From assembly GCA_031441465.1 (NCBI GenBank), contig JANOEP010000011.1, positions 32,001 to 96,000 of the forward strand: DNA of 64,000 nucleotides, in the 5' to 3' direction. Within the stretch, counting starts at the first letter, position 1, and each line of letters starts with the position of its first letter. The notes beneath the pieces were generated by a model that was given only the letters and a program-made list of their open reading frames with translations, was not told the origin of the DNA and did not search any database. Origin of the DNA: a bacterium. Its GTDB lineage: Bacteria; Krumholzibacteriota; Krumholzibacteriia; LZORAL124-64-63. Positions 32,293 through 46,736 of the stretch are shown piece by piece. The position numbers and the translations under genes were made by a program.

Positions 32293-32438
32293 GGCACGAT
32301 ACGTGCCAATGCCGACAGCTTGTTGAATGTTTACAAGCCATAATCAACAAACAGGTTAGCCTGGATAGCGGCACAATGTGTAGGCGTTGCTACGTTGCAT
32401 GCAACGGTATTGATGCAACAATACCGTTGCGTGCAACG
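32293..32438 (-). promoter_or_regulatory. Sigma54 promoter and upstream activator sites for trxA
   Basis: TGGCACGTATCGTGC on minus strand (32294-32308), AT-rich spacer, 20-bp inverted repeat 32393-32438 built from GTTGC/GCAAC units. Confidence 0.7.
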
Positions 32439-32474
32439 CTGCTGGGGGGCATCTTGGAAGGCAGGGGAGGAACC

Positions 32475-33839
32475 ATGGACAGACTCGACGCCCTGTGCCG
32501 ATTCCGACCGTTGAGCGTGGCCGACATCCTCGACGCCTTGGCCGAAGGGGTCGTCGCCGTCGACGAGAACCTGCGTGTGCTGGGCATGAACGCCAGGGCT
32601 CGGGCCTTGTTCGAGACGCCGGCGGACGGGCTCGGCGGCGCCTCGGTGTGTGAGCTGTTCGGAGAGGGAACCTGCCCGCTGGCGTGCCTGCGGGAAACGT
32701 TGACCACCGGCCGGCCCATCCGCGACTACCAGACACGGGTGAGGCTGGCGGGCGGCCGTCTCGGCGAGGTGCAGATCAGCACGATCCCGCTGGCGAGCGA
32801 GTCGGGCGTGGTGCACGGCGCGGCGATCATCATCAGCGACGTGACCGAGGTGACGATCCTGCGCAAGGAGGTCGACGCCCGGCACCGCCACGGCGCCATC
32901 ATCGGTCGCGACCGGCGCATGCTCGACCTGTACCGGCTGATCGAGGATGTCGGGCCGAGCCAGGCCACGGTCCTGATCCGCGGCGAGAGCGGCACCGGCA
33001 AGGAACTGGTGGCGCAGGCCGTCCACTACGCGTCCCATCGCGCCGACGGCCCGTTCGTGATGGTCAACTGCGCCGCTCTTTCCGAGGGGCTGCTCGAGAG
33101 CGAGTTGTTCGGCCACGTGCGCGGCGCCTTCACGGGTGCGATCGCGACGCGGCGGGGCCGCTTCGAGGAGGCGCGCGGCGGCACGCTGTTCCTGGACGAG
33201 ATCGGCGACGTCAGCCCGGTGGTGCAGGTCAAACTGCTGCGCGTGCTCCAGGAGCGCGTCATCGAGCGCGTCGGCGACAACACGCCCGTGCCGGTGGACG
33301 TGCGCATTGTCTCGGCCACGAACCGGGATCTGGAAGACCTGGTCGCGCGCGGGCGGTTGCGCGAGGACTTCTATTACCGCATCAAGGTCGTGGTCCTGGA
33401 CATCCCGCCCCTGCGCGAGCGCCGCGAGGACATCCCGCTGCTGGTCGATCACTTCCTGGCACGCAACCCGCAGGCCTCGCGCGGCGTCTCTACCGAAGCG
33501 CTGCGGGTGCTGATGGCCCATGCCTGGCCCGGGAACGTCCGCGAGCTGGAGAACTCGCTCGAACACGCCTTCGTCCTGTGCCGCGGCGGGATCATCGAAC
33601 CCGCGCACCTGCCGCCGGAAGTGGCGGCGGGAGCGGCGGGCGGGCGCGTCCAGGCCGGGCTGCGCGGCCTGCCCCGCCACGGCGACACCGAGCGCGACGC
33701 GGTGCTGGCGGCGCTGGTGCGCCACGGCTGGCACCGCGTCCGCACCGCCCGCAGCCTGGGGGTTGACAGGACCACGCTGTGGCGCAAGATCCGCGAGTAC
33801 GGCCTGACGCCGCCGGATGCCGGCGCCGTCGGAAACTGA
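32475..33839 (+). CDS. PAS-domain sigma54-dependent transcriptional activator (bEBP, Fis HTH)
   Basis: [36 protein letters not shown]-terminal HTH. Confidence 0.93.
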
Positions 33840-37898: not shown

Positions 37899-37999
37899 GC
37901 AGGGGTCTCCTTAGTGGGCGTCGTCCGGGTGGCGGGGGGGGGACCGGGATCGGTGCCAGGAGACAAAGTAGGCCCCTTGTGGGGGGCGGGCAAGTTCCT

Positions 38000-39325
38000 T
38001 CAGAGAGCGATGATTTCTTGGATATCCGCCTGATCGCCTCCGAATACGATGCCGATCTCCCTCAGCAGGGGGAACGGCGGATCGCCGCCGGCGAAGATGA
38101 AGACGAAATCGTTCGGCAGGATGGCGGGACCGGTCGTCGTGGTCAGCGCCACGGTGTCGGCCTGGATCGCGGTCAGCTGCGAGTCGCCCAGGAAGCGCAC
38201 GGCTCCGGAGGCGATCAGGGCCTCGACCTTGTCCGCGTTGCGTTTCTTGATGCGCAGCAGACGGGGCTTGCGGTAGGAAAGCGTCACTTCGATGTCCGGC
38301 TGGCTGGCCAGGGCGACCGCGGCTTCGACGGCGCTGTCGCCCCCGCCGACGACCAGCACCCGGTTACCCCGGTACAGCGAGGCGTCGATGAGGCGGTAGG
38401 CCACCTTCGCGGCGTCTTCGCCGGCGATGCCGAGCTTGCGCGGCGTGCCACGGCGGCCCAGGGCGAGCACCACGTTCCGGGCGCGATGGTCGCCGGCCGT
38501 CGTGTGGACTTTCAGGTCGCCGTGGCTGCCCGTGATGCTCAGCAGGCGCTCGTCGGTGTGGATCTTCAGGTCGTGCTCCGTGTGCAGGCGCAGCCAGATA
38601 TCCAGCAGGTCCTCCTTGCTGTACTCCTTCTGCAGCAACGGGCCGTACAGGGGGATCACGACCGGCTGGACCAGCACCAGCTTGCGACGGGGGTATTGCA
38701 GGATGGTGCCGCCCGGTCCCTGTTGGTCCAGCACCAGGCAGCGCAGGCCGTGCTGGCGCGCCGTCAGCGCCGCGCTCAGGCCGCCGGGTCCCGCGCCCAC
38801 GACGATCGCGTCCCAGCACGCGTCGCCGGCAGGGAAGGGGCCGCGGGCGACGATCGCCTCCATGGCGCGGCGTCCCTGGTCCACGGCGTTGCTCACCAGA
38901 GCGAACCCGCCCAACTCGCCGGCGACGAAGATCCCCGGCCGGCTGGTCTCGAGTTCCGGGCTGAGCACGGGGATGTCGTCGCGGGTCGTGATGTCTCCCA
39001 GACCGACCTTCAGCGCGCCGACGGGGCAGGCTTCGGCGCAGCGGCCGTGGCCGATGCACCGGGCGCCGTTGGTGATCACGGCCTTGCCGCCGACGATGCC
39101 GAGCACGTCGCCTTCCGGGCAGGCCGCCACGCAGGAGCCGCAGCCGATGCAGGCGTTGGCGTCGATGAGCGGGTACTGGCCGACGGGCCGGTTCATGCCG
39201 AGCGCCACGGTCTCGTCCCGCCGGGCGGCGTCCCGGATCCGGGTGGCGCGGAAGCGCAGGAAGTAGGGAACGAACAGGCCGGCGCCCAGCAGGAGGGCAC
39301 AGCCCCAGATCAGCAACGATTCCAT
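38000..39325 (-). CDS. Membrane-anchored 4Fe-4S ferredoxin / FAD-NAD(P) oxidoreductase (TrxR-fold)
   Basis: N-terminal TM helix, CIGCGSCVAACP, CIGHGRCAEACP, GAGPGG, GGGDSA. Confidence 0.88.
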   Translation of the reverse strand: MESLLIWGCALLLGAGLFVPYFLRFRATRIRDAARRDETVALGMNRPVGQYPLIDANACIGCGSCVAACPEGDVLGIVGGKAVITNGARCIGHGRCAEACPVGALKVGLGDITTRDDIPVLSPELETSRPGIFVAGELGGFALVSNAVDQGRRAMEAIVARGPFPAGDACWDAIVVGAGPGGLSAALTARQHGLRCLVLDQQGPGGTILQYPRRKLVLVQPVVIPLYGPLLQKEYSKEDLLDIWLRLHTEHDLKIHTDERLLSITGSHGDLKVHTTAGDHRARNVVLALGRRGTPRKLGIAGEDAAKVAYRLIDASLYRGNRVLVVGGGDSAVEAAVALASQPDIEVTLSYRKPRLLRIKKRNADKVEALIASGAVRFLGDSQLTAIQADTVALTTTTGPAILPNDFVFIFAGGDPPFPLLREIGIVFGGDQADIQEIIAL

Positions 39326-39342
39326 GTCCCCCCCATGCCGAT

Positions 39343-40965
39343 TCAGAAACGCAGCGAGAGATCGGCGCGCAGACGGTCGGCCTGGAGATCGTCGCCGCCG
39401 TCCCGCTCGTACTCCAGGCCCGCCAGCCAGGCCCGATTCAGGACCTTCCGCGCGCCGATCCTGGCCCAGTGCGAGTTGCGCGTCGCGGCGCCGGTGAGGT
39501 CGTAGTTGTAGAGCCCGGCCGCAAACTGCAGGTCCAGCCCGTCGCGCAGAGCATGATCCAGCCGCAGGGAAGGTGTCAATCCGGACACCCGCGGGCCGTC
39601 GAAGCCCCGCAGGTCCAGGGTCAGGTGGTTGCCGGCTCCCAGGATGCCGGCGCGTCCTACGCCGAAGCCCCAGCTCCAGGTGTCGCCGTCGCGGCCGGCG
39701 CCGCCGCGCACGCCGCCGTCGGCGCTCAACGACCAACCGGCGCCTCCGGTCCAGCGCGTCCGCAGTCGCAGGCCCATCCGCTCGGCGTCGCGGAAGAGGC
39801 TGTCGGGGAGCGAACGGTTCGTCCAAGTGCGGTACAGCTCGCGGCGGTCGTGACTCAGCGAGGCGCTCAGGTTCGGCGTGAATCGCGCGGAGAGGCTGGT
39901 GACCGAGTTGCTCAGGGCGAAGCGACGGCCTTCCGTCGCGTACCGCCAGCCCCGGTTGACTTCCAGTTCGGCGCTCTGGTGCAGGCGGAAGGCGCCCGTG
40001 CGGCCGAGGTCGCCGTCCAGCAGGAGGTACTCGCGGCTGGCTTCGCTGCCGTGGTACTCCCCGACCGCGGCCAGGACGAGATTCCAGGACCGGTCGGCGC
40101 CGTCGTCGTCGGTCCAGGCCAGGAAACCGCCACCCTTGCGCTCGTCGCTGCTCGGCTCGCTGGTGCGCGGGTCGGGCGTGAAGCCCGCGAAGGCGCCGAC
40201 CCGCGTGCCGGCGGCCAGGCGCCGGCTGGCCAGGACCCCGTCGAGCTGGCCGAAACCGCTGACGGCCCGGCTGGTGATCCTGCCCAGGCTGTAGTGCCAG
40301 TCGTCGGCTGGAAGCTCGTGCGAAAGGGTGAAGAGGTAGACGCGGTTGCGCCACTCGTTCTCGGCGGCGGACGAGTAGCCGGCGGCGCGGCGGTTCTGGC
40401 GCAGGGTGCCCCGCACCTGCAGTTCGTGGCCGCCGGCGAACGGTTCGCGAGACCGCAGGTCGAAGCGCAGCGCCGGCTGGGTCAAGTCGAGGTCGGCCTC
40501 GCTGCGGTCGTTGCTGTGCAGCCACTGCAGGGCGAGTCGGCCGCGCAGGAAGAAAGGCTGCCGCGGCGCCGTCGCCGCCGGTCGCGGCACGGGCGCGATC
40601 GACCCGGCGCCGGCGGCGGGCTCCGTGACGGCCTCGGTGTCGGCCGGCGCGGGCGCGGGGCCTTGCCGGATCACGGTGGCCGTGTCGCCGGGTTGGACGT
40701 CCGCCGGCGCACCCGTGATCCGGCAAGAGGCCGAATGCTCGGCCAGGTGCTCGAGCGTGATCTCGGTGACGGGCGCGTCGCGGCGCAGGATCTGCAACAC
40801 GTCGCCCGCGCGCAGGCCGTCGGCGCGGCCGGCGTCGAGGTAGACCTGATCGGCGGACACGTAGCTGACCTTGGCGCGCGGCAGGTCGTCCGCCCGCGCC
40901 GCCGGGGACGCGAGACCGAGGATCAAGATCCCGGCCAGCAACCAAGGGTGCTGTCGCTGTGTCAT
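39343..40965 (-). CDS. Putative outer-membrane beta-barrel (porin)
   Basis: Signal peptide, alternating amphipathic strands, C-terminal Phe (ADLSLRF). Confidence 0.75.
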   Translation of the reverse strand: MTQRQHPWLLAGILILGLASPAARADDLPRAKVSYVSADQVYLDAGRADGLRAGDVLQILRRDAPVTEITLEHLAEHSASCRITGAPADVQPGDTATVIRQGPAPAPADTEAVTEPAAGAGSIAPVPRPAATAPRQPFFLRGRLALQWLHSNDRSEADLDLTQPALRFDLRSREPFAGGHELQVRGTLRQNRRAAGYSSAAENEWRNRVYLFTLSHELPADDWHYSLGRITSRAVSGFGQLDGVLASRRLAAGTRVGAFAGFTPDPRTSEPSSDERKGGGFLAWTDDDGADRSWNLVLAAVGEYHGSEASREYLLLDGDLGRTGAFRLHQSAELEVNRGWRYATEGRRFALSNSVTSLSARFTPNLSASLSHDRRELYRTWTNRSLPDSLFRDAERMGLRLRTRWTGGAGWSLSADGGVRGGAGRDGDTWSWGFGVGRAGILGAGNHLTLDLRGFDGPRVSGLTPSLRLDHALRDGLDLQFAAGLYNYDLTGAATRNSHWARIGARKVLNRAWLAGLEYERDGGDDLQADRLRADLSLRF

Positions 40966-41990
40966 CAGTTACCTCGGGGGTGGCACTGGAAGCAGGCGGC
41001 GCTCTGGTAGGCGTAGCCGTTCTCGCCCTGGTGTCGCTGGTCCGTTTCCGTGCGGTTGTGCTCGTGGCAGAAGATGCACTCGAACACGGCATAGTTCGTC
41101 GGCGTCACGTGGCAGTCGACGCAGGCGTTCCACTCGTTGTTGTGCCGGCCCGAGTAGATCGGGAACAGCGTGTCGTGGTTCCAGTTCGACGGCTGCCAGA
41201 CCGAGGTCGTGTGGCAGGAGGCGCACTGGGTGTTGAAGCCGGCGGCGACGTGGCCGGGATCGTTGGCCGCCTCGTAGTCGGGGCGGTGGCAGGCGTAGCA
41301 GTCGGTCGGCGTGCCCGTGTAGCCCGCGGTGTGGCAGGAGGCGCAGGTCGCAGCGGCGTGGGCGCCGGTCAGCGGGAAGGCCGCCGAGTGGATGAAGGAG
41401 CCGGAGCCCCAATCGCTCGCCGTCATCCCGTGGCAGCTGGAGCAGTCCGTGCTGAAGCCGTTGGCCGCGTGGTCGGGATCGCGCGTCGCTTCGTAGTCGG
41501 TGTCGTGGCAACCGAGGCAGTCGGCGGCGATCGCGGTGTGCTCCTCGCCGGGCGATCCCTGGTGGCAGGCGTCGCAGTCCGCGACGGCGTGGGCGCCGAG
41601 CAGGGGGAAGCCGGTGGCGGGGTGGCGGTTGCGGCTCGCGTCGCGGACGTCCCAGCCGGAGGTGTCGTGGCAGTCTTCGCAGTTCGTGCCGAAGCGCCGG
41701 CGGTGCACGTCGAGGTGGCAGTCGGCGCAGGCCGACGCGACCCGGCGGAACTGCAGGTCCTGATGGCACCCGGAGCAGACGGCCTGGGCGTGCCGGCCGG
41801 TCAGGGCGTAGCCGGTCGTCGTGTGGTCGAACGAGGGCGGCGGCCAGGACACGTTCCACGACGAGGCGTCGTGACAGGCCTCGCAGCGCACGTCGATGTC
41901 CCCGTGGGGGCTGAGGTCCGGGGTCTGGGCTGGAGCCCGGACCGCGACGGACAGGAGGAACGACAACGGCAGCAGCCAGCGTCGGGTCAT
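40965..41990 (-). CDS. Multiheme c-type cytochrome (13 CxxCH)
   Basis: Signal peptide MTRRWLL...APA; 13 CxxCH motifs counted by hand; ATGA overlap. Confidence 0.92.
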   Translation of the reverse strand: MTRRWLLPLSFLLSVAVRAPAQTPDLSPHGDIDVRCEACHDASSWNVSWPPPSFDHTTTGYALTGRHAQAVCSGCHQDLQFRRVASACADCHLDVHRRRFGTNCEDCHDTSGWDVRDASRNRHPATGFPLLGAHAVADCDACHQGSPGEEHTAIAADCLGCHDTDYEATRDPDHAANGFSTDCSSCHGMTASDWGSGSFIHSAAFPLTGAHAAATCASCHTAGYTGTPTDCYACHRPDYEAANDPGHVAAGFNTQCASCHTTSVWQPSNWNHDTLFPIYSGRHNNEWNACVDCHVTPTNYAVFECIFCHEHNRTETDQRHQGENGYAYQSAACFQCHPRGN

Positions 41991-43714
41991 GGCCGGTCTC
42001 CCTTGGGTTTCGATTCGAGGAACCCCTGCGTGTGGCAGGCCTCGCAGCGCTTGTCGACCGGGCGGTACCGGACCAGGAAGTCGTCGGCGTCGCCCTCGCG
42101 GAGATGGCAGGCCTGGCAGGCCACGTGCTGATGGCCGCCGGCGAGCGGGAAGGTGGTGTCGCGATCGTGGACGAAGCGCTCCGCTTTCCAGCCGGCGGCG
42201 GTGGTGTGGCAGCGGGTGCAGTCGGTGGCGGGCGGGGTCGTCGCCGCGGCGAACTGGCCGCGGTGCGGATCCTGGTGGCACGCGTCGCAGCGTTCCGGGG
42301 TGGGGCTGAAGCGCAGGCTGTCCGAGGCGGCCCGCCGATCCGGCGCGGCCTGCCGATCCAGTGTGGCCTGCCGATCCTGTGGGGCGTGGCAGGCCCGGCA
42401 GGTGGTCGTCGCGTGCTTGCCCGAGAGCGGGAAGCGCGTGCGGCCGTGGTCGTAGGCCACCTGCCGCCACGAGGCGACGTCGTGGCAGAGCCGGCAACCC
42501 GCTTCGGCCTTCTGCGCCGTGCTCGTGCCGGCGTGGGGATCCCGGTGGCAGTCCGTGCACGCCGCCGCCGGCCGCTGCAGGGGCGTCGGCGCCCCCTGGC
42601 GCGGCGGCGCGTGGCAGGCGCTGCAGGCCACGGCGAGGTGGGCGCCCTGCAGGCCGAAACCGGTGGAGTCGTGGCGCGCGACCGTGAACGACGACGGTTT
42701 GAAGCCGTTCACGGTGTGGCAGCGGCTGCAGGCGTCGTAGGTGCGTCCCTCGGCGGCCTCCGGGTGGCGGTCTTGGTGGCAGCCGTCGCAGCGCGCGTAG
42801 ACCAGGGCGCCGCGGGGCGCGTCCGCGCGGTGGCAGGCGTCGCAGCGCAGGGCCGTGTGGCGCCCCCGCAACGGGTAGCGGGTGCGATCGTGGTCGAAGT
42901 CGCCGCCGGCGACCCGCCGCCAGTCCGCGGGATCGTGGCAGCGGGCGCAATCGGCGCCGAGGGAGCCGGCGTGGGGGTCCTTGTGGCAGGCCGCGCAGCT
43001 CGCGTGCTCGACGGGGCGGTAACGGTGCCAGGTGTCGGCAACGCCTTCGACGGTCTCGGTCGTCGCCCGGTGGCAGCGGTCGCAGGCCAGGTCGCGGTGT
43101 TTCCCTGCGAGGACGAAGTCGGCCTTGGCGTGGTCGAACCCGGGAGCGGGCTTCCAGGCGTCCGGCGTGTGGCAGGTCGTGCAGGCGCCTTCGAACTGGC
43201 CACGGTGTTCGTCGCGGTGGCAGTCCAGGCAACCGGCGCCGAGGCCCAGGTAGGTGCGGCCGGGGTTCTTGCCGCGGTCGCGGACGAGGGAGACGTCCTG
43301 GAGCAGATCCGCCCGGTGGCACTTCCGGCAGTCCAGCTTCCGGTGGGCTCCCGCCAGCGGCCACCCAGCCGCAGCGTGGTCGAAGGCGGCCGGGCCGGCC
43401 GGCCAGTGGATCAGGTCGAAGTCGCGACCCTGGTGCTCGACGTGGCAGGTTGTGCAGCGTTCGTGGCCGGCGGTGGCGTGGAGTCCGCGTCCCGCGGCCA
43501 CCCGCGTGGCGATCTCCTGGTGGCAGGCCAGGCACTTCGGGCCGACTTTCTGGTCGCCCAGCTCGTGGCAGGACGTGCACGCACGGACGCCCTCCAGGTG
43601 CTCGTGAACGCGGGAGAGCTTGCCGGGCGACAGCTGCGCCGCGGCGAGGACCGGGAATCCCGCAATCAGGACAATATTGATCGCAAAATGAGACACACGT
43701 CTCAGAACACCCAT
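41987..43714 (-). CDS. Multiheme c-type cytochrome (20 CxxCH)
   Basis: Signal peptide then QLSPGKL; 20 CxxCH motifs in FDH..FPL.G.H repeat modules. Confidence 0.92.
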   Translation of the reverse strand: MGVLRRVSHFAINIVLIAGFPVLAAAQLSPGKLSRVHEHLEGVRACTSCHELGDQKVGPKCLACHQEIATRVAAGRGLHATAGHERCTTCHVEHQGRDFDLIHWPAGPAAFDHAAAGWPLAGAHRKLDCRKCHRADLLQDVSLVRDRGKNPGRTYLGLGAGCLDCHRDEHRGQFEGACTTCHTPDAWKPAPGFDHAKADFVLAGKHRDLACDRCHRATTETVEGVADTWHRYRPVEHASCAACHKDPHAGSLGADCARCHDPADWRRVAGGDFDHDRTRYPLRGRHTALRCDACHRADAPRGALVYARCDGCHQDRHPEAAEGRTYDACSRCHTVNGFKPSSFTVARHDSTGFGLQGAHLAVACSACHAPPRQGAPTPLQRPAAACTDCHRDPHAGTSTAQKAEAGCRLCHDVASWRQVAYDHGRTRFPLSGKHATTTCRACHAPQDRQATLDRQAAPDRRAASDSLRFSPTPERCDACHQDPHRGQFAAATTPPATDCTRCHTTAAGWKAERFVHDRDTTFPLAGGHQHVACQACHLREGDADDFLVRYRPVDKRCEACHTQGFLESKPKGDRP

Positions 43715-44535
43715 CGGTACCCCAGGGCCACGGTTACGGCCACGTGGATCACCATGATGACCAACATGAGGTAAGCAAAGGGTTTGTGGATGACGTGCCA
43801 ATAGTGGAACAACTCCCGGATGCGGTTGTGGAACAGGATTCGACGACCGAGCAAGACCCGCGCCTTGGCGGCCGCCAGGACCGTCATGGAGGCCCCGGCC
43901 GGCAACTGCTTTCGTAACCGCATGCCCAGCAACATGTTGCTCAGAGGCAGGCGCCACAGGCTGCCGCTCGCCGTGGTGGCGGTCGCCAGGGTGGACATCG
44001 TGCGCGCGTCCAGCCCGTGAGCCTCGCGCAGCAGACGGTCGGCCTCCTCGAGCTGGAGCTGGATCTGTTCGATGGTCATGGCTTCGCCCAGCACGTTGCG
44101 CGGCAGTTGCAGGTACAGATACCGTCCGAACACGCCGCTGAGCGCCACGGCCATCATGGACCAGTAGCTCACTGCGACCAGGCCCTGGACCTTGAGCGAA
44201 GTGTGCAGCGTCACCAGCAGAGGTCCCGAGATTCCCAGGAAGATGTGCCCGTCGAGCCAGCGCGCGATGTGCCCTTTGCCGGCAAGCCCGTGCCAGCGCT
44301 TGCGCAGGGAGTAGAGCAGCAGCAGCAGGATCTGCAGGCTGCCGACGATGCCCAGGCCGTGGCCCACCGTGCCGGCCGGACGCAGGCTGCGGAAATCCGG
44401 GTGGTGGGGGCGCAGGTCCAACGGCAGGCTGTAGTAGTCGATTCCGACCACGAGCAGCCAGGTGATCGCGGCGGCGAGCAGGAGATAACTGAATCGCAGC
44501 ACGATGCGGAACCCGCGGGTGCTCCCGGCGGCCAT
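43702..44535 (-). CDS. His-rich inner-membrane protein (putative heme b, ferric-reductase-like)
   Basis: Several TM helices with WLDGHIFLG, LHTS, HYWHVIHKP, IHV; AAGGAG RBS. Confidence 0.75.
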   Translation of the reverse strand: MAAGSTRGFRIVLRFSYLLLAAAITWLLVVGIDYYSLPLDLRPHHPDFRSLRPAGTVGHGLGIVGSLQILLLLLYSLRKRWHGLAGKGHIARWLDGHIFLGISGPLLVTLHTSLKVQGLVAVSYWSMMAVALSGVFGRYLYLQLPRNVLGEAMTIEQIQLQLEEADRLLREAHGLDARTMSTLATATTASGSLWRLPLSNMLLGMRLRKQLPAGASMTVLAAAKARVLLGRRILFHNRIRELFHYWHVIHKPFAYLMLVIMVIHVAVTVALGYRWVF

Positions 44536-44572: not shown

Positions 44573-44652
44573 ATTCTAGGCTCTCTTGCTTCCGATACAA
44601 CCAGTATGTCGTGTCGCAAATGGTTGTCCTGGAGCGGCGGAGGTGATAGTTT
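44573..44652. promoter_or_regulatory. Back-to-back sigma70 promoters
   Basis: Minus strand TTGTAT-N16-TAGAAT (44600-44573); plus strand TTGTCC-N17-TAGTTT (44624-44652). Confidence 0.55.
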
Positions 44653-44726
44653 TCCCCACATGCCCGGTGCCCCGGCGGAGCGATCCCGGGGCGCCCCTTT
44701 TTCCGCGTGTGATGACGGAGGTGTCC

Positions 44727-46736
44727 ATGGACGTCAGCGGCAAGGCCAAGAGCCTCCCCGAGAACGCCTACCGCAAGCTCAAGCCCGGCGAGGAATACAT
44801 CCCCGTCGTGCCTGCCGGTCGGATCGTACCCGAGCTGACACCCTACTCCCTGATCTGGGGTCTGGTGTTCGCGGTGATCTTCTCGGCGGCGGCCGCCTAC
44901 CTGGGCCTGAAGATCGGCCAGGTGTTCGAAGCGGCCATCCCCATCACGATCCTGGCGATCGGCCTGAGCGCGAAGCGCAAGGACGCCCTGCAGCAGAACG
45001 TGATGATCCAGTCCATCGGCTCCGCCTCGGGCGTGGTCGTGGCCGGCGCCATCTTCACGCTGCCCGGCATCTACATCCTGAACCTGTCGGACAAGACCAA
45101 TTTCATGCAGATGTGCCTGGCCTCCCTGCTGGGCGGCTTCCTGGGCATCCTGTTCCTGATCCCGTTCCGCCGCTTCTTCGTCAAGGAGATGCACGGCGAG
45201 TTCCCGTTCCCCGAGGCCACCGCCAGCACCGAGGTGCTGATGGCGGGCGAGGCCGGCGGCGGCCAGGCGAGCGTGCTGGTCAAGAGCGGTCTGCTGGCCG
45301 GCGGTTTCCAGCTGTTCTCGCAGACGTGCGGCCTGTGGCGCGAGACCTTCGGCACGCCCGCCTTCGCGTGGGGCGAGTCGCTTTCGAGGAAGGTGCGCCT
45401 GGAGTTCCACATGATGACCGAGGCCGCGATCATCGGCCTGGGCTACATCATCGGCCTGCGCTACGCGCTGATCATCGCCTGCGGTTCGTTCCTGTCGTGG
45501 TGGGTCATGACTCCCATGATCGGCATCCTGGGCAAGGGCGTGACGGTCGCCGGCACGCTGTACCGCCTGGAAGCCCTCGACGGTCTGGACACGCTCATGA
45601 TCTTCCGCAACTTCGTGCGGCCGGTGGGCATCGGCGCGATCGCGATGAGCGGTCTGATCGGCGTCTGGAAGAGCCGCAGCATCATCCTGGGCGCCTTCAA
45701 GCTGGCGGCCGGCGGCGCGGCGGCCAAGTCCGCGGCCGGTGGCGTCGTCGAGCGCACGCAGCGCGACCTGCCCATGAACATCGTGACCTCGGGCCTGATC
45801 ATGACCCTGTTGGCGGTGTTCTGCTTCTTCTGGTTCATGGTGCCCGGCGTGGGCATGGGCCAGGCCCTGGCCGGCCTGGCGGTCGTGGCCGGCATCTCGT
45901 TCCTGTTCACGACGGTCGCCGCGCGCGCCATCGCCATCGTGGGCACCAACCCGGTGTCCGGCATGACCCTGATGACCCTGATCATCAGCTCGGTGGTCCT
46001 GAAGGCCGTGGGCCTGCAGGGCCAGGAGGGCATCGTGGCGGCGCTGTTGATCGGCGGCGTGGTCTGCACCGCGCTCTCGATGAGCGGCGGCTTCGTCAGC
46101 GACCTGAAGATCGGCTACTGGCTGGGCACGACGCCCTCCACCCAGGAGAAATGGAAGTTCCTGGGCACGGTCGTGGCGGCCGTCTCGGTGACCGCGGTGA
46201 TCATGATCCTGAACACCAGCTACGGCTTCTCCGGGGAGGGCGCCCTGCCCGCGCCCCAGGCCAACGCGATGGTGGCCGTGATCGAGCCCCTGATGACCGG
46301 CCAGCCGGCCCCTTGGCTGCTGTACATGGCCGGCATCTTCATGGCGCTGATCCTGCAGTGGACGGGCCTGCCGGCGCTCGCCTTCGCCCTGGGCATGTAC
46401 CTGCCCCTGGAGGTCAACACGCCGGTGTTGGCCGGCGGTCTGATCGCCTACTGGGTCGGCAAGGGCGGCAGCGAAGCGGCGCAGACCGCGCGCAAGGATC
46501 GCGGCACGCTGATCGCGAGCGGCTTCGTGGCCGGCGGCGCCATCATGGGCGTCATTGCCTCGATCATCAAGTTCGCGGGGATCCAGTCGTCCGGCGACGC
46601 CAAGTGGAGCGTGGACCGTGTCCTGGGCACGGACGGGTGGCTCGAGAACCCCGCTTCGGCCGTGCTGACGCTGGTGATGTTCTGCCTCCTGGGCTACTAC
46701 CTGTACCGCAGCTCGCGGTCGGCCGCCAAGGACTGA
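44727..46736 (+). CDS. OPT family oligopeptide transporter
   Basis: YLGLKIGQVFEAAIP, FPFPEATA, NPVSGMT, DLKIGYWLG, APQANAM. Confidence 0.92.
   Translation: MDVSGKAKSLPENAYRKLKPGEEYIPVVPAGRIVPELTPYSLIWGLVFAVIFSAAAAYLGLKIGQVFEAAIPITILAIGLSAKRKDALQQNVMIQSIGSASGVVVAGAIFTLPGIYILNLSDKTNFMQMCLASLLGGFLGILFLIPFRRFFVKEMHGEFPFPEATASTEVLMAGEAGGGQASVLVKSGLLAGGFQLFSQTCGLWRETFGTPAFAWGESLSRKVRLEFHMMTEAAIIGLGYIIGLRYALIIACGSFLSWWVMTPMIGILGKGVTVAGTLYRLEALDGLDTLMIFRNFVRPVGIGAIAMSGLIGVWKSRSIILGAFKLAAGGAAAKSAAGGVVERTQRDLPMNIVTSGLIMTLLAVFCFFWFMVPGVGMGQALAGLAVVAGISFLFTTVAARAIAIVGTNPVSGMTLMTLIISSVVLKAVGLQGQEGIVAALLIGGVVCTALSMSGGFVSDLKIGYWLGTTPSTQEKWKFLGTVVAAVSVTAVIMILNTSYGFSGEGALPAPQANAMVAVIEPLMTGQPAPWLLYMAGIFMALILQWTGLPALAFALGMYLPLEVNTPVLAGGLIAYWVGKGGSEAAQTARKDRGTLIASGFVAGGAIMGVIASIIKFAGIQSSGDAKWSVDRVLGTDGWLENPASAVLTLVMFCLLGYYLYRSSRSAAKD

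Follow-up and report, generated by a model that had tools for sequence, protein, structure and literature searches.

The 64,000-nucleotide stretch of DNA analyzed here (hereafter, the window), taken from contig JANOEP010000011.1 of a Krumholzibacteriota genome (GCA_031441465.1), carries a block of five minus-strand genes that is, judged by the homology of its parts, a porin–cytochrome cluster of the PCC3 type, and the flavoenzyme encoded by its fifth gene is a general partner of PCC3 that is not peculiar to this lineage. We propose, with a probability of roughly 0.55, that the block would act as a two-component electron exporter resembling NADPH oxidases (NOX) and ferric reductases (FRD), which would need no quinone and conserve no energy. 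A broader version of this idea, in which PCC3 at large would be a five-subunit, quinone-independent wire from NADPH to the cell surface, with a NOX-like module made of a circularly permuted thioredoxin reductase (TrxR) fold and a ferredoxin leading through both membranes, falls in our judgment slightly short of even odds. An earlier note on this DNA had described five packed genes with 33 heme motifs, and this description holds: the genes overlap by 13, 4, and 1 nt at three junctions and leave a 17-nt gap at the remaining one (Table 1), and their GC content at third codon positions lies between 0.88 and 0.94. Across the six frames of the window we counted 34 CxxCH motifs, 33 of them confined to the two cytochrome open reading frames (ORFs), and the density of heme motifs is therefore not due to chance.

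Table 1. Positions of the five genes of the block, of the parts of the flavoenzyme, and of a hairpin, numbered along the window.
Feature	Position	Strand	Remarks
PCC3 inner-membrane protein (IMP)	43702..44535	-	277 aa, five predicted transmembrane (TM) helices; predicted di-heme b, ferric-reductase-domain-like
20-heme cytochrome c, counterpart of PCC3 periplasmic cytochrome	41987..43714	-	575 aa, 20 CxxCH
13-heme cytochrome c, predicted barrel-threading or outer element	40965..41990	-	341 aa, 13 CxxCH
Outer-membrane beta-barrel, PCC3 porin homolog	39343..40965	-	540 aa, ends in F; N-terminal beta domain (31-100), barrel 139-540
Membrane-anchored ferredoxin-fused FAD/NAD(P)H oxidoreductase, putative fifth subunit	38000..39325	-	441 aa; Pfam Fer4 + Pyr_redox_2/3
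N-terminal TM anchor, residues 4-22, then Arg-rich stretch	39260..39316	-	hydropathy and long helix in model
Two-cluster ferredoxin domain	39011..39169	-	non-canonical ligation (CxxCxxC..C, CxxHxxC..C); homolog alignment
Permuted segment, residues 108-165 (about 55 residues)	38831..39004	-	usually C-terminal part of FAD domain, here ahead of first Rossmann motif
YpdA/TrxR-fold FAD- and NADPH-binding core, residues 168-432	38030..38824	-	without redox CxxC
Terminator-like hairpin	37972..37987	-	directly 3' of flavoenzyme gene; weak, 2 such sites vs 2.0 expected by chance

The assignment to PCC3, a likeness that had already been suspected, rests on the homology of the IMP, the 20-heme cytochrome, and the barrel to proteobacterial PCC3 parts. 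He et al. 2017 (PMC5566968) describe PCC3 as a porin, two cytochromes, one extracellular and one periplasmic, and an IMP that bears SGXXG and a pair of WX3HX13H motifs, and they report PCC3 cytochromes with 63 and 21 hemes in A. atlantica, the same numbers that we found in an Amphritea locus (L104). The four genes are clustered in a conserved manner, and the window's IMP has the build of the PCC3 class (~300 aa, five TM helices), with the two WX3HX13H motifs at residues 93-111 and 246-264 and SGxxG at 133. A profile of it matches the IMP of the Amphritea locus with an E value of 2.9e-36. In the alignment of homologs of this gene, first read as that of a His-rich TM protein, H97, H111, H250, and H264 are invariant (64/64). 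The IMP had no sequence match in the PDB, and its Atlas neighbours are all unnamed. By the positive-inside rule, which we applied to both the IMP and the flavoenzyme, the N terminus of the IMP and the anchored flavoenzyme would lie in the cytoplasm, with H97/H250 near the inner face of the membrane and H111/H264 near the outer one.

The 20-heme cytochrome aligns with the 21-heme protein of the Amphritea locus at 32% identity over 547 aa (E 1e-68), and with 28.8 aa per heme it fits the PCC3 periplasmic cytochrome (~21 hemes, 22–39 aa per heme), the periplasmic location being predicted from its N terminus. It contains 27 further histidines and no methionine beyond the start. The 13-heme protein, with 26 aa per heme, stands where the second, extracellular cytochrome of PCC3 is expected, a position occupied in relatives by proteins of 12–49 hemes; yet it is nearer to the periplasmic type of PCC3 cytochrome (E 1e-32 to 1e-37) than to the proteobacterial extracellular ones (E 1e-11 to 1e-14). 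Both cytochromes start with hydrophobic, signal-like N termini, as read from the sequence without SignalP, which agrees with the export that the earlier note had assumed.

For the barrel, an AlphaFold2 model (mean pLDDT 86) showed 22 strands, and the best structural matches were 22-strand TonB-type barrels (top Z 20.5, root-mean-square deviation (rmsd) 4.3, 369 residues aligned), with MtrB not among the matches listed. In a profile-profile comparison with 16 proteobacterial PCC3 porins, the whole barrel aligned at a probability of 98.6 (E 6.7e-16), while two control proteins, compared as single sequences and hence less sensitive than a profile, reached 0.1 and 4.5. These results bear out the gene's first description as a barrel. 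One of the two controls that did not match was a porin candidate of a PCC4 locus, and PF11854 (MtrB_PioB) matched neither the barrel nor anything else in the window's genome.

The fifth gene encodes the flavoenzyme, whose N-terminal anchor and adjacent Arg-rich stretch imply a cytoplasmic enzyme. It had first been described as a membrane-anchored 2x[4Fe-4S]/FAD-NAD(P) oxidoreductase. The membrane-anchored Fe-S/FAD character stands, but the two cluster motifs are not both canonical: six ferredoxin cysteines (C59, C65, C69, C90, C96, and C100) are invariant in 81/81 homologs, whereas C62 occurs in 51/81 and the second motif is CxxHxxC, with H93 in 79/81. The cluster at the His motif would be either a His-ligated [4Fe-4S] or a [3Fe-4S] cluster. 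The core, in turn, aligns with residues 1-273 of the 326 of YpdA and then ends (Z 21.2, rmsd 6.6, 262 aligned). A profile of the segment that precedes the core hits the FAD-binding stretch at the C-terminal end of many flavoprotein reductases of solved structure (best E 2.6e-4, for residues 407-445 of the small chain of glutamate synthase), while the segment as a single-sequence query gave no significant match (best E 0.04), and in unpermuted relatives from PCC4-type clusters (L162-L164) the segment follows the core. From these two lines of support, the segment profile and the unpermuted relatives, we deduce that the fold is circularly permuted, and the permutation would set the ferredoxin directly on the FAD domain. 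The core carries GxGxxA with R352 (81/81), R358 (80/81), and K360 (78/81), which we take as a mark of NADP(H) preference; these residues point to NADP(H) as the nucleotide of the flavoenzyme.

Among solved structures, the nearest relative of the flavoenzyme is the bacillithiol disulfide reductase YpdA/Bdr, at about 24% identity. Membership in that family was rejected, given a TIGR04018 score of 145 against a cut-off of 340 bits, the permuted order, and the lack of a Cys at the GPCG position, and a thioredoxin reductase was rejected because the redox CxxC of the NADPH domain is absent. The window's genome (G000) carries a separate 333-aa TrxR-like ORF (contig C54) as well as BshC matches (C46:41738-42658 and C71:4051-4221) that suggest bacillithiol synthesis, and a search with the core profile found no stand-alone YpdA in it. 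Some relatives depart from the common layout. One (L067:8660-9952, minus strand) has the ferredoxin and the permuted segment, with no match to the FAD/NADPH core, and three others (L051, L053, L054) have a Cys-rich, zinc-ribbon-like stretch ahead of the ferredoxin that, the start codons being uncertain, seems to replace the membrane anchor in L051 and L053. A second paralog of ~700 aa, in which the permuted core is joined to a Fer4_5/Fe-S membrane domain (L055, L059, L062, and 10 similar ones), was set aside as a different system, with an IMP or barrel in 0/13 fetched loci.

The flavoenzyme and PCC3 were found to accompany each other in both directions and almost without exception, as the earlier note had asked of these genes. 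In the window's own lineage (61 genomes), a full-length ferredoxin-bearing flavoenzyme occurs in 27 genomes; we fetched 22 of these loci and found the barrel in 22/22, all five genes in 17, a cut by a contig end in 5, and three different gene orders. Conversely, 27 of the 28 genomes of the lineage with an IMP have the flavoenzyme. For a wider set, we searched 3 of the 64 parts of the GTDB collection, obtained 565 flavoenzyme relatives, and kept the best 80, so that the loci were chosen by the flavoenzyme alone. By record title they come from Calditrichota, Marinimicrobia, KSB1, Bacteroidota, Ignavibacteria, Gemmatimonadota, Acidobacteriota, Planctomycetota, Verrucomicrobiota, Myxococcota, Nitrospinales, Nitrospira, Spirochaetaceae, and Proteobacteria. 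An IMP or a cytochrome of at least 10 hemes was present in 73/80 loci, and each of the other 7 has too little flanking DNA on one side or both. Where at least 7 kb was available on both sides, 40/40 loci hold an IMP or such a cytochrome, and 39/40 hold an IMP together with two such cytochromes.

The reverse searches in two orders gave a similar picture. Among 401 genomes of the Burkholderiales order (that of the Undibacterium genome G061), the IMP profile matched 51 places in 46 genomes. All 27 strong places (E <=1e-66), the seed genome included, share their contig with a full flavoenzyme (27/27), of which 25 lie head-to-head with the IMP within 1 kb and the other two at 8.4 and 14.9 kb. The 24 weak places represent another class, with decaheme proteins in 7/7 of the loci fetched. 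One genome of this order (G332) has a frameshifted flavoenzyme and no IMP match. In 201 genomes of the order of a Bacteroidales record (G063), the flavoenzyme is present in 18/18 genomes with an IMP, 16 of them with the two genes within 35 bp (one stop-split), one at 1.9 kb, and one with the flavoenzyme on another contig; one more genome gave a partial match only. As kin are not independent, all of these figures are counts and not a statistical test.

The link to NAD(P)H that had been proposed for the wire thus gains from reciprocal co-occurrence, and it gains further from gene fusion: in 7/80 loci, all from Planctomycetota records, flavoenzyme and IMP are fused in frame, with the first IMP helix directly after the enzyme and a short linker between. 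The position of the flavoenzyme gene varies and yet remains inside the cluster, while flanking genes are not kept beyond close kin. In 28 of the 67 IMP-bearing loci, the IMP lies on the strand opposite the flavoenzyme, and in Proteobacteria most flavoenzyme genes are divergent in this way. The distance matrices of the two proteins correlate (rho 0.52 over 64 pairs; shuffled maximum 0.13), a correlation that shared host ancestry would also give and that we therefore do not take as proof of co-evolution. A predicted complex of IMP and flavoenzyme scored 0.29 against a mark of 0.32 and counts neither for nor against their contact. Two loci from Alphaproteobacteria records (L078, L136) have a cassette of the window's type, with a short barrel and co-oriented genes, whose flavoenzyme and IMP group with the non-proteobacterial ones, which offers a lead for a possible transfer of the cassette as a unit.

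In the mechanism that we propose, the anchored flavoenzyme would oxidize cytoplasmic NADPH at its FAD, from where electrons would travel one at a time over its two Fe-S clusters and probably exit at the one with the His motif. They would then reach the b heme on the cytoplasmic side of the IMP (H97/H250), pass through the membrane to the other b heme (H111/H264), traverse the periplasm along the 20-heme cytochrome, and emerge by way of the 13-heme cytochrome, which the 22-strand barrel would hold, toward an outside acceptor, for which Fe/Mn oxides, humics, conductive particles, and partner cells are candidates. The arrangement is that of NOX and ferric reductases, a likeness that He et al. (PMC5566968) had noted for the IMP, and MsrQ, of the NOX/STEAP superfamily, offers a precedent for a split form: its electrons come from a distinct NADH oxidoreductase in the cytosol, and its ubiquinone is not the donor (PMC12525009). 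No quinone would be required on this path from NADPH to the surface. It is in this sense that we infer the "complete wire" "bypassing quinones" of the earlier note. Because electrons would move out of a negative-inside cell while protons are released inside, proton-motive force would be spent, which would make the system a redox valve or a surface reductase and not an energy-conserving respiratory chain. Outward flow would be downhill in both redox and membrane potential and inward flow to NADP+ uphill on both, and export is thus favored. The direction had been called unreadable from sequence; the energetics would lean toward export.

Published data on cultured iron oxidizers bear on this proposal. 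In Sideroxydans ES-1, the PCC3 porin Slit_0867 is adjoined by Slit_0866, a 430-aa protein annotated as FAD pyridine-nucleotide oxidoreductase (PMC12016527). Five Slit_0866 peptides reported as detected in the supplements of that paper match the flavoenzyme family consensus by eye, the start of the permuted segment included, and Slit_0866 is thus apparently the ES-1 flavoenzyme beside the type PCC3 cluster. A further ES-1 protein, Slit_0525, has 431 aa and the same annotation (PMC12016527); since, like Slit_0866, it has one non-unique peptide, a second flavoenzyme copy distant from the PCC3 clusters is suggested. We dropped the proteome co-abundance of Slit_0525 with the IMP Slit_1446 (rho 0.88) as unspecific, as unrelated proteins reached 0.84 and 0.88. 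The published expression data on PCC3 are mixed. Both ES-1 clusters were down-regulated on Fe(II) (PMC8788666), and Slit_1448, the extracellular cytochrome of one of them, was undetected in all eight conditions.

Several observations weigh against quinone-free export. The energetic argument draws on redox potentials taken from general background. Binding of b hemes by the IMP is deduced from its motifs and from sub-threshold PF01794 matches in 9/15 members (best E 0.0036). The 13-heme protein has no lipobox, as no Cys precedes its first heme motif, and its surface location is a prediction. The seven fusions form one clade (FastTree, support 1.0) and hence count as one fusion event, and one genome (G054) has an IMP and a 29-heme protein with no full-length flavoenzyme found, on a contig that ends past the cytochrome. 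In ES-1, the more highly expressed cluster, Slit_1446-1449, has no adjoining flavoenzyme, its neighbours being an HD phosphohydrolase and an aldolase. The IMP of PCC3 copy 2 in Sideroxydans CL21 is reported to have risen as cells gained iron-oxidizing ability (10.1101/2025.02.27.639646), and late cultures had more Slit_0866 on magnetite than on Fe-citrate, a difference that is drawn from few peptides and fits either direction (PMC12016527).

The alternative that survives best, which we nevertheless hold to be unlikely, also has electrons going outward; here the flavoenzyme would be an NAD(P)H:quinone reductase while the IMP would oxidize quinol, and the path would lead through the quinone pool and might conserve energy. 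In the text of He et al. (PMC5566968) the IMP is proposed as a quinone-active cytochrome b, and MsrQ binds ubiquinone (PMC12525009). The divergent gene arrangement of Proteobacteria would suit this reading, whereas the fusion ties one flavoenzyme to one IMP, the four invariant histidines at both membrane faces point to two hemes that would bridge the membrane on their own, and other multiheme/cytochrome-b proteins of the window's genome might fill the role of quinol oxidase.

Import, the direction that the published PCC3 model assumes, appears more doubtful still. Electrons from Fe(II), minerals, or cathodes would enter through the wire and end in quinone, or pass via the flavoenzyme to NADP+/ferredoxin for biosynthesis. 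Ferredoxin-NADP+ reductases (FNRs) of the TrxR type can run in both directions; inward flow to NADP+ against the membrane potential would call for a donor at about -450 mV or below. PCC3 is found in iron oxidizers, 26 Gallionellaceae iron-oxidizer genomes among them, and the CL21 and magnetite observations can be read in favor of uptake, but the decrease of ES-1 PCC3 on Fe(II) and the undetected Slit_1448 speak the other way, and the cassette is common in genomes of the Bacteroidales order and in other lineages not known as iron oxidizers. Least probable of all is that the flavoenzyme serves as a YpdA-like low-molecular-weight disulfide reductase on the wire, for thiol or oxidative-stress balance, or that the conduit is a redox store or sensor that goes no further than the periplasm or membrane. 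Kinship to YpdA/Bdr, the BshC matches with no separate YpdA, and the fact that the surface position of the 13-heme protein is a prediction speak for it. Against it, the flavoenzyme scores far under the YpdA cut-off without the GPCG cysteine, is kept in 27/27 clusters of the Burkholderiales order, in which one expects glutathione and not bacillithiol, and comes with a barrel in every relative fetched from its own lineage.

Within its genome (3.49 Mb, 96.8% complete), the block would have an accessory role, which fits the other respiratory outlets indicated by two heme-copper oxidase subunits and by further multiheme systems. The genome has two cytochrome-c assembly genes and 28 ORFs with at least two CxxCH motifs. 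The further systems (C19:12284-15514, C22:33650-38226, C16:178109-180985, C61:9968-11980, and C66:84131-89324) include a 42-heme protein, a 28+12-heme pair, 19- and 11-heme proteins with a cytochrome-b-like domain, and a DmsE-type decaheme protein adjoining a rhodanese protein. The flanking genes (a 716-aa membrane protein, pepT, and SPFH) were rejected as parts of the block, being kept only in close kin and in 0/80 cross-phylum loci. The first of them, a polytopic protein 50 bp upstream of the IMP (44586-46736, minus strand), stands beside the cassette only in close kin; it had no match in Pfam or NCBIfam and presumably resembles an OPT/YSL transporter. A PAS-containing sigma-54 activator (32376-33839, plus strand) lies ~4 kb downstream of the block. 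Two sequencing runs that carry the full block DNA are from freshwater sediment and may be where the window came from, and no RNA run was among the listed runs that carry the block.

PCC3 is known as a prediction and is described with four genes (PMC5566968, PMC9900912, PMC10734462, 10.1101/2025.02.27.639646, PMC8788666, PMC12016527, PMC13386937). In the literature searched, we found no description of a fifth, although subscription papers, bioRxiv, or figure-only supplements may mention one. Genome surveys count PCC3 as a putative marker of iron oxidation or electron uptake, though the papers that describe it present its function as untested; a near-obligate NAD(P)H/Fe-S partner would change the model of its inner end and would predict export. 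As the characterized porin–cytochrome conduits are fed from quinol (PMC5566968), direct entry from pyridine nucleotides would be a different design, and because the flavoenzyme gene apparently lies beside the type cluster of a cultured strain, the idea can be tested now. For tracing the cassette in Bacteroidota, Planctomycetota, Gemmatimonadota, and other groups, the flavoenzyme gene is also a better marker. The earlier note knew of no such trait in the lineage; an iron-cycling potential of Krumholzibacteria had, however, been proposed from OmcS and Cyc2 genes (PMC7914226) and also appears in PMC9769843, and the flavoenzyme is a widespread PCC3 partner. If the broader version, with PCC3 at large as a wire from NADPH to the surface, is true, fermenters and heterotrophs in >12 lineages could rid themselves of reducing power by way of minerals, humics, or partner cells. 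A cassette of PCC3 and flavoenzyme may also explain the "gigantic" 61+20-heme cluster of particle-associated Lentimicrobium, reported without synteny to known modules (PMC13013709).

Among known systems, MtrCAB/MtoAB and OmbB-OmaB-OmcB likewise combine a barrel with multiheme cytochromes across the outer membrane, but they are fed from quinol via CymA-type proteins, and the window's barrel has 22 strands against the 28 that He et al. 2017 cite for MtrB. Membership in MtrAB/MtoAB/PioAB was rejected, with no PF11854 match and TIGR03508 (DmsE-type decaheme) scores of 48 and 21 against a cut-off of 192. YpdA/Bdr and the TrxR-type FNRs (PDB 7A76, 7A7B, 3LZW) share with the flavoenzyme the fold, the lack of CxxC, and the NADPH-type motif, whereas the window's enzyme is circularly permuted, membrane-anchored, and equipped with a built-in ferredoxin. 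PCC4 (He et al. 2017) has the same IMP motifs but differs in its cytochromes (4, 5, and 10 hemes), its distant IMP class, and the cyclic-nucleotide (cNMP) domains on its flavoprotein; the PCC4 text mentions only "other redox-active proteins". Of the 7 PCC4-like loci with a weak IMP that we fetched, 3 encode a relative of the core that is unpermuted and comes with cNMP and Fe-S domains. These YpdA-like flavoproteins (L164:7056-9431, L162:16045-18930, and L163:15854-19291, all plus strand) are fused in L164 and L162 to two cNMP-binding domains and Fe-S domains, the L164 copy overlapping the IMP gene, and could form a cyclic-nucleotide-regulated entry module.

The NOX/ferric reductase superfamily appears similar in its two HX13H motifs across the membrane, its feed from a cytoplasmic NAD(P)H flavoenzyme, and its occurrence in fused and split forms. 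Here, by contrast, a permuted TrxR fold with Fe-S clusters takes the place of an FNR-type domain or free FMN as donor, a multiheme wire serves as acceptor, and PF01794 remains below its cut-off although the four-His pattern is present. Described PCC3 itself is the closest system, with the gene order of the block equal to that of ES-1 Slit_0870-0867, extended by Slit_0866. The window's version differs in its barrel (540 against about 745 aa, a small beta domain replacing the TPR-like region), in a second cytochrome of the periplasmic repeat type, and in a host outside Proteobacteria; and to what the texts consulted (PMC5566968, PMC9900912/PMC10734462) present as four quinone-linked genes, the block adds a conserved fifth, the NAD(P)H/Fe-S enzyme.

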